Sequence record: OM386665.1 | Reading direction: 5' to 3' (one strand) | Origin: Escherichia phage vB_EcoM_ESCO56 | DNA: 64,000 nt | In this document: piece by piece, positions 6,581 through 9,280 of the stretch | How the letters are laid out: each line of letters opens with the position of its first letter | How positions within the stretch are numbered: position 1 is the stretch's first letter | Made by a program: the position numbers and the translations under genes | Notes under the pieces: model-generated | What the model saw: only the letters and a program-made list of their open reading frames with translations | The model's database searches: none | Told to the model about the DNA's origin: nothing

Positions 6581-6662
6581 TGGTCGAGGCGGCAGGACTC
6601 GAACCCGCATACTCCACTTACTCGGTTAACGTCTGTTTAGAAGACAGATGAGATACGCCCCG
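6581..6662 (-). tRNA. tRNA-like element (acceptor and T-arm present, anticodon-like loop CUUCUAA; no D-arm resolved)
   Basis: Acceptor CGGGGCG/CGCCTCG with one G-U, T-arm GCGGG-TTCGAGT-CCTGC, A73, CCA; only internal hairpin is TCTGT-CTTCTAA-ACAGA placed too far 5' for a canonical tRNA. Confidence 0.3.
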
Positions 6663-6910
6663 TAATTATCTTTAAAGACTCTCTTAGAAAGCCCTTAAAG
6701 ATGCCCACCTTATTAATCATACCGTGGGCTAGTACGCCAAATTCTTTGATGAGGGATTGGAAGACCTCACTGGTGTTTAGCCTATCAAGCTACTGCCAGA
6801 AAAACATTGTCGTTTGCATTTATTTTAAATTTGCAAAATAGACGCTACGCAACGAAAACTAAGGGTACTATAAAGTGGTCACATCACTATTCTGCTACAC
6901 TTCCATTAAA

Positions 6911-7050
6911 TTATCTTTGTAGATAAGCTACCCAGACTTGCTTAAGGTCTGTAGCGATGTGACTTTTTGGGTTTAAATCTAGAATTTACCCTTTCACCCT
7001 TTGTGGTCGCATACTCACAGGTAAGCTTAATAACTTATCTACAAAGATAA
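6911..7050. repeat. long inverted repeat (17-bp perfect arms, about 106-bp spacer) in tRNA-array spacer
   Basis: TTATCTTTGTAGATAAG at 6911-6927 is the exact reverse complement of CTTATCTACAAAGATAA at 7034-7050. Confidence 0.8.
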
Positions 7051-7098
7051 TTACCAGACCGTTGTTTATCATCTTAACTAGATATCTCATAAAGTGTT

Positions 7099-7332: not shown

Positions 7333-7416
7333 ATGTTTAGTATTACCAGACCGTATCTTTCAATTTTTCCGCTAAAAATTTAATAAACATTGCTGTAAAC
7401 GGTCTTCTGTAAAATT

Positions 7417-7493: not shown

Positions 7494-7623
7494 ATTCTTA
7501 ATGACCAGACCAAATCTCTTCTTTGTCCGATTTACCTTCAGATGAATAAGATTAAGTTTGCTGTAATTGGTCTTCTGTCAAAACTGGCGTTCCAGAAGGG
7601 ATTTGTCTACTGGAACATTAATT

Positions 7624-7700: not shown

Positions 7701-7817
7701 ATAAACTTTTTAAACTCTATGTAACCACTTTAACACTATTTTTTAGTGATTGTCAAGAACTTTTTTAAAATATTTTCAGTATCTTAGAAAAGCTCTCGTT
7801 TCGTTTCTATGTAGAAC

Positions 7818-7846
7818 ATATTAAAGGGTATCAAACACATTGTCAA
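7818..7846 (-). promoter_or_regulatory. sigma70-type promoter for the tRNA array, embedded in a palindromic operator-like element
   Basis: Minus strand reads TTGACA-N17-TAATAT; the -35 and spacer are flanked by inverted repeat AAGGGTAT (7824-7831) / ATACCCTT (7846-7853). Confidence 0.55.
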
Positions 7847-7864: not shown

Positions 7865-9280
7865 TTACCAGATATAACGGTCAACCATTACTGCTTTGAG
7901 CATTACGCTGATTGGGTCAAACTTCTCACCACCAAGTAGAGCTTTTAAAGTGGCTGGAGAGAAACCAGATACCATTGCTACACCGTTATCCTTAACAGAC
8001 ACTTCGCAAGTACCATTACGGTTTGCTAAGTACCAGAATACCAGTTGTGGCATCTCATATCCAGCTTTTTTGTACTTACTCTGAATTTCTTCAAAGTTTG
8101 TACGACCGTTAGCTCCATCAACCTGATTGAACTCCATATCGGAGAAGATGATAAGCTTACTTGGCATATCTTTCTGAGTCAAGTTATTTCTTTTACCTGT
8201 CTCAAGAATGCGGTCAAAAGCTGCTTGTAAGTTAGTTGAGCCATATTCAACGTGTCGCATCACCTGACGATGACGGTTTCGTAAATCACCACTCAGTTCG
8301 ATGAAGTGAGGGTTTGTTGAATAAACCATTAACTCATTCTTAAAGCAACCTGTATTGCGTTCTGCTACATACAATGCAAGTGAAACACCAATATCAAGAG
8401 CAGTAATTGAACCAAAATTCACCCAAGACATTGAGCATGAAACATCAGACATACATAGGATGTTTTCACCTTCTGCCATCCAGTTTGGTAGTGCCTTCCA
8501 CTGCTCATTAGCAACATCTGCATTACCATACTTAACAGATTTAATCACATCGTATGGGTAAACAGCACCAGCATTAATCTTAGCCTCACCCTTTGATAAG
8601 GACTCGATGTAGGCTTTGTAGCGCTCTCCATCTTTACGGTTAAACAGCTTTTGGTAACGTGCAGCAGCAAGTGAAGGAACCTTACTGTAGTCAATCTTAC
8701 CAAACTCGTTAGCAGAGATTTTTTGCTCAACTGTATCAGATAATGCAGACAACAGTGCGCGGTACTCTTTCTCACTCAAGTTGGCAAACTTGCAGAAACG
8801 TTTTACAAACTGCTTATGACGTGGTTTGACTCGTGGTAACCACTTGGCTGCCAAACCTGCTGTTGCAGGGTCTAGTAATGCTGCTTCTAAATGCTTGAAG
8901 GCATCTGTCTCAAAACGAGTGCCTACGAAGATTTTGAAGTCATCAAAACGACCAAGTTCTGCAATCTTATCCATAATGCGAAGAACCTGTGTAGGCTCTA
9001 AAACTTTGTCTTCAATCGCTTGAAGCAAAACAGTTCTGAAGGCTTTACGCTCACCCATACCTTCTCGTACATCTCGCATGTGCAGTAAAATACGAACTGC
9101 AACATCAACATCCTCACGCAAAGCTTTGTAGAACAGGTCTGGTAAGATTTCTACGTTGCTACGGCTTGAACCAGCAGCTTTGTAAAAGTCTACAAGGGCA
9201 GACATTGATGAAGTATGGTTTACAGCACCATTTTCAGTTCGACCTGCATGAAGGTGCGCATGTTTAAATAACTCGCTCAT
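7865..9280 (-). CDS. vWA-domain protein with MIDAS motif; N-terminal region possibly TROVE-like (Ro60-like)
   Basis: 471 aa; C-terminal hydrophobic strand then DVSCS (DxSxS MIDAS) within ILCMSDVSCSMSW; N-terminal alpha-rich region with TENGA...ALVDFY. Ro60-like call is from recalled family features, not a search. Confidence 0.5.
   Translation of the reverse strand: MSELFKHAHLHAGRTENGAVNHTSSMSALVDFYKAAGSSRSNVEILPDLFYKALREDVDVAVRILLHMRDVREGMGERKAFRTVLLQAIEDKVLEPTQVLRIMDKIAELGRFDDFKIFVGTRFETDAFKHLEAALLDPATAGLAAKWLPRVKPRHKQFVKRFCKFANLSEKEYRALLSALSDTVEQKISANEFGKIDYSKVPSLAAARYQKLFNRKDGERYKAYIESLSKGEAKINAGAVYPYDVIKSVKYGNADVANEQWKALPNWMAEGENILCMSDVSCSMSWVNFGSITALDIGVSLALYVAERNTGCFKNELMVYSTNPHFIELSGDLRNRHRQVMRHVEYGSTNLQAAFDRILETGKRNNLTQKDMPSKLIIFSDMEFNQVDGANGRTNFEEIQSKYKKAGYEMPQLVFWYLANRNGTCEVSVKDNGVAMVSGFSPATLKALLGGEKFDPISVMLKAVMVDRYIW

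Follow-up and report, generated by a model that had tools for sequence, protein, structure and literature searches.

Predicted tmRNA-like and stem-closed non-coding RNAs in the tRNA operon of Escherichia phage vB_EcoM_ESCO56

Transfer-messenger RNA (tmRNA; SsrA) is the RNA of trans-translation, the main ribosome-rescue pathway of bacteria. In Escherichia coli it is a one-piece molecule of 363 nt that encodes the tag ANDENYALAA. In Alphaproteobacteria, cyanobacteria and some marine phages tmRNA is permuted and consists of two pieces, the coding piece lacking the 3' acceptor strand and the T-arm. Phages also carry RNAs that act upon the RNAs of their hosts: AgvB and AsxR, the anti-sRNAs (antagonists of small RNAs) of prophages of pathogenic E. 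coli, base-pair with host non-coding RNA. ARAGORN finds complete tmRNA genes, both one-piece and two-piece, in 2.3% of phage genomes, and prophages are reported to contain fragments of ssrA (PMC9004378). In this study, we analysed a stretch of 64,000 nt from Escherichia phage vB_EcoM_ESCO56 (sequence record OM386665.1; hereafter the window), in which positions 6663–7098 contain the genes of a predicted tmRNA-like RNA without a tRNA-like domain (6703–6861) and of a second structured RNA closed by a long inverted repeat (6909–7052).

The interval 6663–7098 is part of the minus-strand transfer RNA (tRNA) and small-RNA operon of a Felixounavirus. Since all tRNA genes of the cluster lie on the minus strand and the cluster promoters are located at 7727–7846, it is to be read on the minus strand. 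It comprises two non-coding RNA genes and the scars of two deletions. An earlier note on this DNA had described some 430 bp with no tRNA and no sizeable open reading frame (ORF). ARAGORN indeed reports no tRNA here and there is no ORF of at least 60 amino acids, but a remnant of tRNA-Lys and the tmRNA-like gene are present, and the latter is the most important content of the interval. The structural claims, namely a minus-strand RNA stem at the inverted repeat and a tmRNA-like architecture without a tRNA-like domain, are highly probable on the basis of sequence comparison, and the best overall explanation, which is a composite one, is reasonably probable. Taken by itself, the inverted-repeat element is of moderate interest, as a structured RNA confined to one lineage.

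The tmRNA-like gene

The gene is recognized by a conserved minus-strand block, AUAAAU GCA AAC GAC AAU GUU UUU CUG GCA GUA GCU UGA UAG, in which a GCA (Ala) resume codon opens the tag frame (Table 1). As in E. coli tmRNA, an A is located 4 nt before the resume codon, and this holds in all lineages; A86 of E. coli tmRNA is the nucleotide most important for frame setting. The phage RNA further resembles its E. coli counterpart in the ten codons of its tag, the AND/ANE start and hydrophobic Ala-rich tail of the latter, and the match to the tmRNA consensus around the resume codon. A TTTGCA direct repeat noticed earlier in this region, with copies at 6813 and 6830, turns out to be part of the gene; read on the minus strand, its copies are UGCAAA, one in the resume-codon region and the other in the loop of the hairpin just upstream. 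An AUG overlapping the resume codon (AUAAAUGCA) was considered as the start of the frame and rejected, as ORF lengths vary and the AUG is missing in the SSU5-like copies.

BLAST alone retrieved nine lineages (Felixounavirus/Mooglevirus, Kolesnikvirus, Kuttervirus Vi01, swi2, Pollock, St11Ph5, BUCT610, a lambdoid prophage and an SSU5-like phage-plasmid), in all of which ten tag codons are followed by an in-frame stop. The tag reads ANEEVYLAVA in the SSU5-like phage-plasmid and ANDDVVLMAA in the lambdoid prophage, where the element is found between the Q and holin genes. Scanning viral contigs with a sequence pattern yielded 120 further loci, and the 134 instances display 17 tags, all of ten codons and all fitting AN[DE]xx[FYVI]L[AMI][AV]A; the scan itself fixed the tag length and the stop codon, which counts against its use as evidence of a constant length, and the unbiased observations are codons 4–6 and 8 in the scanned loci and, for the length, the nine BLAST-found lineages only.

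In every lineage the best Rfam matches are tmRNA families, aligned at the resume-codon region (...AUAAAUGCAAACGAU...), with scores of 15.4–31.4 bits versus gathering scores of 47–84, none reaching its threshold. The best-scoring family is the two-piece tmRNA RF04321 (21–31 bits versus a gathering score of 47). At permissive thresholds, the window and 12 related loci returned only tRNAs and sub-threshold tmRNA, and Rfam gave no match of the RNA to any known phage sRNA family.

The structure was assessed on a 29-sequence alignment (A1) with 27 pairs in six helices, two pseudoknots included. A brute-force search for covarying columns proved too noisy because there are few independent lineages, and explicit structures with slide and shuffle controls were used instead. 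Pairing is found in 91.4% of the cells, compared with 28–43% when the partners are slid; 14 pairs change on both sides, and the observed covariation was reached by none of 500 shuffles. As in E. coli tmRNA, stop codons are placed in the loop of a helix-5-like hairpin and H-type pseudoknots follow the frame. The loop of pseudoknot a and its downstream partner occur as CCGA/UCGG, CCAA/UUGG, CCAG/CUGG, CUAG/CUAG, GUCGU/ACGAC and CUCCA/UGGAG. Pseudoknot b has 13 variants of stem 1 (such as CGCACU/GGUGUG) and 12 of stem 2 (such as GCCC/GGGC), nearly all of which pair, and the conserved AUUAAUAA separates the two stems. Upstream of the tag frame only the hairpin is clear, and an equivalent of pseudoknot 1 was not established.

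By its predicted structure, the 6703–6861 RNA is built like the template half of a tmRNA, without the tRNA half. Unlike E. coli tmRNA, it measures only about 160 nt, has two downstream pseudoknots instead of three, and its tags end in LAVA, LMAA or similar rather than in ALAA. It possesses no acceptor stem, T-arm, CCA end or P2 helix, neither a T-arm nor CCA being found 3' of pseudoknot b, and therefore would not be charged or enter the A site alone. The tmRNA call made by ARAGORN in swi2 is spurious, as it borrows a real tRNA-Met.

The covariation bears directly on whether the sequence could be a functionless, decaying fragment of host ssrA derived from imprecise prophage excision. Although ssrA is a common integration site and its fragments are reported in prophages (PMC9004378), similarity to E. 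coli ssrA is restricted to the tag region, and the six helices are kept by compensatory change across unrelated, mostly virulent phage families. Moreover, six lineages have their own consensus promoter and all tags are unlike the host tag. Such an origin is extremely unlikely and has already been largely refuted by the covariation.

The consensus sigma-70 promoters of these six lineages (VpaE1_ev035 (L001) and Sf14, Hena2, swi2, BUCT610, L111 and the phage-plasmid) have a −10 box that ends 5–9 nt before a GUUUUCG core. In L001 and Sf14 the boxes are TTGACA-17-TATAGT or TAAGAT, with 11 of 12 consensus matches in L001. The transcript would therefore begin at this core, with no room for an acceptor strand. 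In promoterless array copies, flanking complementary strands enclose the element at the same GUUUUCG point.

This start is relevant to another explanation, in which the tmRNA is genuinely split, the RNA being its coding piece and a separate phage acceptor RNA supplying the tRNA-like domain. The phage RNA shares with the coding piece of two-piece tmRNAs the absence of a 3' acceptor strand and T-arm, the permuted-tmRNA model is its best Rfam hit (28–31 bits), and the RNA retains what would be expected of a translated template, namely a tag frame, an A at −4, a helix-5-like hairpin and pseudoknots. Two-piece tmRNAs do exist, phages included (PMC9004378), and acceptor candidates are at hand in the gene at 6581–6662, with G3:U70, A73 and CCA, and in tRNA-like modules of other lineages, T-arm-containing modules lying beside the element in some of them. 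However, a true two-piece coding piece starts with a 5' acceptor strand and obtains its acceptor piece from the same precursor, neither of which was found for the phage RNA, and a start at GUUUUCG leaves no space for the former. No other complement to the 5' end occurs in the window besides the gene itself, and the Rfam scores are all below gathering. The neighbouring RNAs also vary by lineage, with an ordinary tRNA-Arg in Mooglevirus and heterogeneous inserts in other phages, and what lies upstream is a genuine tRNA-Ile (63 bits) and then a promoter in relatives, and only a promoter in siphoviruses. A split tmRNA is thus distinctly unlikely, and a template half that stands without a tRNA half is preferred here.

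In the N4-like Schitoviridae (L010, L031 and L079), a long hairpin comes after the element, and after this a GC-rich stem with a U-run. The latter looks like a genuine terminator, which suggests a discrete transcript of about 250–300 nt.

A distant BLAST search with 6663–7098 as a 436-nt query matched 595 phage records, of which the element itself accounts for roughly 350–400, outside Ounavirinae. Positions 6702–6826 match unrelated groups at 71–87% identity: Kuttervirus (Vi01), 46–49-kb siphoviruses of Klebsiella/Escherichia, Schitoviridae (Pollock, St11Ph5) and Erwinia Kolesnikvirus. A 171-nt element query found it in 329 of 5426 complete E. coli genomes (6%), at 97 chromosomal and 237 plasmid places. 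None of the hits examined carries an RNA gene annotation, the entries being 'none', 'hypothetical protein' or an unannotated record. In the literature, for which full-text coverage was incomplete, no description was found of the tags, of a half-tmRNA without the tRNA part or of a Felixounavirus tmRNA. The RNA appears to represent a different, previously undetected class, a template mimic of about 160 nt with an antisense seed.

The 5' segment and host tmRNA

Another difference from E. coli tmRNA is that the 5' end of the phage RNA is antisense to the host tag codons. The 5'-terminal sequence (A)UAGUUUUCGU(C) is perfectly complementary to nt 96–107 of E. coli ssrA, (G)ACGAAAACUA(C), and its target corresponds to host tag codons 3–6 (GAC GAA AAC UAC). 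The GUUUUCG core of this seed is present in 39 of 40 lineage representatives. The complementarity extends over 10–11 nt in 30 of the 40 and over 7–9 nt at the same site in nine of the ten others, and two flank variants retain 10 nt through a shifted window (AUAGUUUUCGU versus CCAGUUUUCGUC). At least 10 nt of complementarity was seen in none of 497 control 22-nt windows of the same RNAs and in 8 of 2000 shuffled seeds.

The target GACGAAAACUAC is identical in the ssrA of Escherichia, Citrobacter, Erwinia, Raoultella and Enterobacter (120 species sampled), and this target is shared by the hosts of all lineages found, the divergent lineage L021 being SSU5-like and enteric. In the few lineages inspected, it is precisely at the codons targeted by the seed that phage and host tags differ, and self-pairing is therefore limited to 4–7 bp. 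The host tag codons are different in Pasteurellaceae (GACGAACAAUAC), Yersinia (GACUCGCAAUAC) and Pseudomonas, and some Yersinia species were found to have a different tag (ANDSQYESAALA). Yersinia phage P778, a single and weak cross-host case, has a Ro-like gene and 25 tRNAs; it lacks the element, and its tRNA-Ile borders directly on tRNA-Arg.

Small RNAs that act by base-pairing typically have a conserved seed at the start of the transcript. In structural models of trans-translation, the stretch targeted here has to pass into the mRNA entry channel directly behind the resume codon. The phage RNA would base-pair with this single-stranded template region of host tmRNA, and the pairing would interfere with or redirect host trans-translation during infection; the outcome could be inhibition, decay or re-templating. 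Like AgvB and AsxR, it resembles a host RNA or target and would pair with a host non-coding RNA, and some of its copies also lie in the late regions of lambdoid prophages. Unlike these anti-sRNAs, its proposed target is tmRNA and not an Hfq-dependent sRNA, and it includes pseudoknots and the whole of a tag frame. As suggested by the complementarity, an antisense effect on host tmRNA is put forward tentatively, as a possibility rather than a probability. If the RNA does inhibit or re-template host tmRNA, it would provide phages with a new means to manipulate translation quality control, and every step of the proposed manipulation is directly testable.

A more elaborate and unlikely version makes the phage RNA a hijacker of the host template. 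Through annealing of its 5' end to host codons 3–6, a duplex would form that blocks the host template and tethers the resume codon and tag frame of the phage to the tRNA-like domain of the host, charged and bound by SmpB. Proteins from stalled ribosomes would then receive a phage tag (...LAVA or ...LMAA instead of ...ALAA) and meet a different proteolytic fate, and the complex, if real, would amount to a hybrid host–phage two-piece tmRNA.

Several observations speak against these roles. No tRNA-like domain is detected by ARAGORN in the window and its relatives, and the Rfam scores are sub-threshold. The tag frame seems to be kept intact, yet a route to its translation without a tRNA-like domain is not evident; the intact frame argues that the frame matters, which simple inhibition leaves unexplained. 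Some phages that infect enteric hosts (SSU5-like elements and Vi01) have a seed complementarity of no more than 7–8 nt, and the Salmonella tag, which we take to be ANDETYALAA, would put one mismatch against the seed. In this window the promoter of the element is crippled: the promoter scan detected none at the residual TATAGT box and, with the −35 box deleted, expression would need read-through from the cluster promoters together with processing.

The inverted-repeat RNA

The earlier note had drawn attention to a perfect 17-nt inverted repeat at 6911–6927 and 7034–7050. The repeat is exact and extends to a perfect 19 nt (6909–6927/7034–7052), or to 22 nt at 95% identity with one mismatch (6909–6930/7031–7052), leaving 100 nt between the arms. 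It is the sole perfect inverted repeat of at least 14 nt with arms no more than 200 nt apart in the window, and in 30 dinucleotide-preserving shuffles such repeats were absent at k = 17 and averaged 0.1 at k = 14. The folding proposed in the note as a check was run on 6895–7065 and gave z = −4.35 for the minus strand and −4.73 for the plus strand. In the predicted fold, a closing stem of 22–24 bp (arms 7031–7052 and 6909–6930) surrounds a multi-branched interior of about 100 nt.

Arms that lacked conservation or complementarity in relatives had been named in the note as refuting evidence; both properties were found. The 12 different variants represent two main sequence types, A and B, and an intermediate one, C, and in each of them the arms form a helix of 22–24 bp. 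Pairing is observed in 99.7% of the cells, versus 28–47% when the 3' partners are slid by 1–3 columns, and the observed covariation score was reached by none of 500 shuffles. Compensatory double changes are seen at five pairs in all, with two-sided changes at four stem positions (UA to CG twice, GC to CG and UG to GC), and a matched 1-nt deletion has removed one base pair from both arms jointly in five sequences. The inner hairpin covaries as well (pair 121/137 is GC in eight sequences and AU in four), and its 9-nt loop reads CUUAAGCAA / CUUUAGCAA in the sequence types. The inverted repeat is, judged from these comparisons, the 22–24-bp closing helix of a predicted Ounavirinae-specific RNA of about 145 nt.

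The stem contains 39 G-U cells, so that 270 of 271 cells pair as minus-strand RNA and 232 of 271 as plus-strand RNA. As G-U pairing is valid on the minus strand only, an RNA helix on the tRNA strand is favoured over a DNA cruciform or a plus-strand RNA. Among the roles first considered for the repeat, that of a structured RNA has therefore gained support from covariation and that of a cruciform has lost ground, while that of a processing site is a prediction. The repeat might still work as DNA in another way, as a site of recombination or cassette exchange or as the terminal repeats of a small mobile element. This is a hot spot of rearrangement, with two deletions here and HNH endonuclease genes nearby in relatives; types A and B combine similar arms with largely different interiors, like exchanged cassettes, and other phage lineages have arrays of conserved stems around variable inserts. 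Set against this, the 39 G-U cells pair only as minus-strand RNA, the compensatory substitutions keep pairing and not sequence, the orientation and place of the element within the tRNA operon are constant, and there are no target-site duplications or extra copies. A function as DNA, cruciform included, is very unlikely, and a minus-strand RNA helix is retained.

BLAST finds the element only in Felixounavirus- and Mooglevirus-type phages (236 records), with no match in E. coli genomes, and the idea of a host-RNA mimic was rejected as no E. coli genome match was detectable by BLAST. Rfam, searched at permissive thresholds with the window and the 12 related loci, contains no match. The interiors of types A and B differ considerably; the small ORFs within them (8 versus 15 amino acids) are unrelated between the types and were discarded. 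A transcription terminator or attenuator might be expected to form a long stable hairpin-type structure such as this one within an operon, but here 100 nt separate the arms, no U-tract follows the repeat, the terminator scan is empty at 6900–7060, and tRNA and RNA genes go on downstream on the same strand; this reading is hardly credible.

RNase III acts on near-perfect duplexes of about two helical turns that flank an RNA within its precursor, as in rRNA and T7 processing. Its stems flank the 16S and 23S rRNAs, its sites are found in T7 early mRNA, and the tRNA cluster of T4 encodes the stable RNAs species 1 and 2. The stem described here is a conserved helix of 22–24 bp with only G-U irregularities. 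Like RNase III stems, it consists of at least 20 bp formed by the flanks of an RNA in a polycistronic precursor, and like species 1 and 2 of T4 it would belong to a small stable RNA co-encoded with phage tRNAs. It differs from these systems in that there is no sequence similarity, it is confined to Ounavirinae, and cleavage is predicted only. By analogy, a processing or stabilising role is suggested: the closing helix would bracket the RNA within a polycistronic precursor, akin to the stems flanking rRNAs, and would serve as a double-strand-specific (RNase III-type) processing site and/or as a protective stem, processing releasing a stable small RNA. Processing by RNase III is offered with the same reserve as antisense action of the tmRNA-like RNA. 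Three points weigh against this account of the stem: the lineages behind the covariation number essentially two or three (types A, B and C), in variant L122 a C-A mismatch on the minus strand corresponds to G-U on the plus strand, and we infer RNase III cleavage only from the length of the stem.

Operon, rearrangements and neighbouring genes

Table 1. Coordinates of the features described in the text.
Feature	Positions	Strand	Basis or description
tmRNA-like RNA without tRNA-like domain	6703–6861	−	5' seed, hairpin, tag frame, helix-5-like hairpin and two H-type pseudoknots
Conserved 5'-terminal motif UAGUUUUCGU	6852–6861	−	complementary to host ssrA nt 97–106 (ACGAAAACUA)
Tag reading frame	6782–6817	−	GCA resume codon, ten codons ANDNVFLAVA, then UGA UAG
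Helix-5-like hairpin	6770–6799	−	stop codons in loop; pair 94/118 GC in 15 sequences, AU in 14
Pseudoknot a	6737–6769	−	hairpin UGAGG...CCUCA; loop CCAA pairs with downstream UUGG
Pseudoknot b	6703–6736	−	stem CGUACU/GGUAUG; loop GCCCAC pairs with GUGGGC after conserved AUUAAUAA
Residual −10 box TATAGT	6867–6872	−	−35 box (TTGACA in relatives) lost in first deletion
Inverted-repeat element, predicted structured RNA of about 145 nt	6909–7052	−	repeat, fold, covariation, G-U pairs, distribution
Inner hairpin CAGAC-CUUAAGCAA-GUCUG	6933–6951	−	9-nt loop conserved in both types
16-bp hairpin ('empty module')	6668–6702	−	one strand resembles inverted-repeat arm (repeats D7, I5)
tRNA-Lys(UUU) 5' remnant, first 23 nt	6882–6904	−	comparison with relatives
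Orphan 3' strand (AACGGUCUGGUAAU) of spacer stem	7053–7066	−	partner and enclosed YrlA-like RNA of relatives deleted here
20-nt filler of unrelated sequence at second rearrangement	7078–7097	.	comparison with most Felixounaviruses
Spacer module tRNA-Met/tRNA-Asn	7348–7405	−	stem AGACCGU (7399–7405)/ACGGUCU (7348–7354); holds GGTCTTCTGTAAA motif; repeats D4, D5
Paralogous spacer module tRNA-Pro/tRNA-Met	7507–7573	−	stem AGACCAA (7567–7573)/UUGGUCU (7507–7513)
Two strong sigma-70-like promoters	7727–7846	−	TTGACA-17-TAATAT and TTGACA-18-TAAAGT; directly upstream of first tRNA
Ro60-like (TROVE + vWA fold) gene, 471 amino acids, DUF2828/DUF7788	7865–9280	−	structure model, fold match; upstream of cluster promoters

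The window is 99.7% identical to Escherichia phage vB_EcoM_ESCO50, and about 270 Felixounavirus-type records match the region at 80–100% identity; by sequence the phage is a Felixounavirus (Felix-O1-like). ESCO50 is the only colinear match over the whole stretch among the matches listed. ARAGORN identifies 13 tRNA genes, every one on the minus strand, between 3919 and 7700, and Rfam adds one more tRNA-like gene at 6584–6662. The promoters upstream of the cluster are likely to be the source of a polycistronic tRNA/small-RNA transcript in ESCO56. In records L001, L002, L006 and L010 the tRNAs are annotated on the plus strand, whereas ARAGORN places them on the minus strand, and the tRNA strand appears to be wrong or missing in these records.

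Most Felixounaviruses, for example VpaE1_ev035 (L001) and Mushroom (L002), have additional genes in the same interval. Between window positions 6885 and 6882 the relatives contain 236 nt with tRNA-Ile, tRNA-Met/Thr and most of tRNA-Lys(UUU), the breakpoint of this first deletion being a CATC microhomology, and between 7077 and 7098 they contain about 340 nt that include tRNA-Asp and a YrlA-like module. The inverted-repeat element is intact in relatives, where it lies between tRNA-Lys and the region upstream of tRNA-Asp. ESCO56 and its closest relative ESCO50 are without tRNA-Ile, tRNA-Met/Thr, tRNA-Lys(UUU), tRNA-Asp and the YrlA-like RNA. HNH endonuclease genes are found in the same interval of other relatives, and these genes and the two deletions together mark the tRNA cluster as a rearrangement hot spot.

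An odd tRNA-like gene at 6581–6662 on the minus strand was missed by ARAGORN and scores 33 bits with the Rfam tRNA model. It has the acceptor stem CGGGGCG/CGCCUCG with G3:U70, followed by A73 and CCA, which are the alanine identity elements. Its anticodon loop, CUUCUAA (UCU, Arg), is canonical, the D-arm is missing and the variable region measures 23 nt. Compensatory changes occur in the anticodon stem at locus L133, and in Mooglevirus an ordinary tRNA-Arg(UCU) takes the place of this gene.

The gene at 7865–9280 encodes a DUF2828 protein for which an AlphaFold 2 model was built from a 38-sequence alignment (pLDDT confidence score 87.5). Among PDB entries, its 11 closest matches are without exception Ro60, Rsr or TROVE structures, with E-values of 3e-8 to 1.5e-6 and template-modelling scores of 0.52–0.59, and they include the Ro60 of Thermus phage phiLo. 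A sequence search against the PDB returned nothing for this protein, and the model from its single sequence was poor (pLDDT 44.7). PHROGs names the family 'RNA-binding protein'. The protein is a homolog of Bas63 gp130 and, according to the model, folds like Ro60. Gp130 of Felixounavirus Bas63 is Ro60-like and counters ppl defence, and some of the downstream 'tRNAs' were guessed by the authors to be Y RNAs (bioRxiv 10.1101/2024.10.10.617714). Y RNAs are encoded on the same strand as Ro60 and within 4 kb of it (PMC4201824).

A YrlA-like candidate is located between tRNA-Asp and the inverted-repeat element in most Felixounaviruses (L001 2132–2265, minus strand). In L001 it consists of a closing stem AGACCGUU/AACGGUCU, a GGCGAAGG motif, which is the GNCGAAN0-1G motif of YrlA, a T-arm, a loop-closed acceptor-like stem and a D-arm-like hairpin; the Rfam YrlA model fails to detect it. 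From these features, the module immediately 5' of the inverted-repeat element in relatives is a strong candidate for a Y RNA.

The inverted-repeat RNA itself could be a second, YrlB-like partner of the Ro60-like protein, whose ring would bind the long stem. It shares with Y RNAs such as YrlA (PMC4201824) and the Yrl1/2 RNAs of phiLo (PMC12135203) a size of about 100–150 nt, paired ends, a long stem around internal loops or hairpins, and a location directly downstream of a Ro60-like gene on the same strand, here at a distance of 0.8 kb and thus within 4 kb. The Bas63 homolog gp130 that counters ppl, with its suggested Y RNAs downstream, and the YrlA-like module immediately 5' of the element in relatives also agree with this idea. 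However, types A, B and C contain neither CGAA nor GNCGAAN0-1G (GNCGAAG in YrlA), there is no tRNA-like domain and no T-loop motif in the interior, the stem is a near-perfect duplex rather than the stem-bulge-stem of YrlA with its bulged helix, and Rfam YrlA (RF02553) gives no hit in the window at E ≤ 1. A Y RNA function of the inverted-repeat element is therefore doubtful, and the YrlA-like module of relatives is a much better candidate. The spacers of the Felixounavirus tRNA cluster, beside a Ro60-like anti-defence gene, are predicted to be packed with stem-bracketed small RNAs, of which the inverted-repeat element, the YrlA-like RNA of relatives and the G3:U70 tRNA-like RNA are candidates for the Y RNAs of Bas63 gp130.

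The stem-bracketing principle of the inverted-repeat element recurs elsewhere in the operon. The GGTCTTCTG motif, reported earlier as a repeat in the next spacer, is found at 7401 and 7569, near the positions given then, and belongs to two paralogous spacer stems, in which it pairs with CCAGACC copies at 7346 and 7505 on the minus strand; the differences between the two copies are compensatory. Both modules have common flanks, ACAGAAGACC(N2-3)UACAGCAA ... GGUCUGGU, and further copies are present in relatives. Where the window has the 'empty module' hairpin, some relatives have a stem with a conserved insert (CCCUUAUGGGGCUUGGCUUAAAUGCA).

At loci L009, L013, L014, L017, L048 and others, in siphoviruses and lambdoid prophages, the tmRNA-like element lies within module arrays. 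In these arrays conserved complementary strands (CACAACAGGUAAGAGCAUU ... AGUGCUCUUUCCGUUGUGG) surround variable inserts of 45–85 nt, some of which contain T-arms, and the arrays look like exchangeable small-RNA cassettes. One of the array inserts, CCCUUAUGGGGCUUGGCUUAAAUGCA, also occurs in Felixounavirus- and Mooglevirus-type phages, there within a stem of other sequence.

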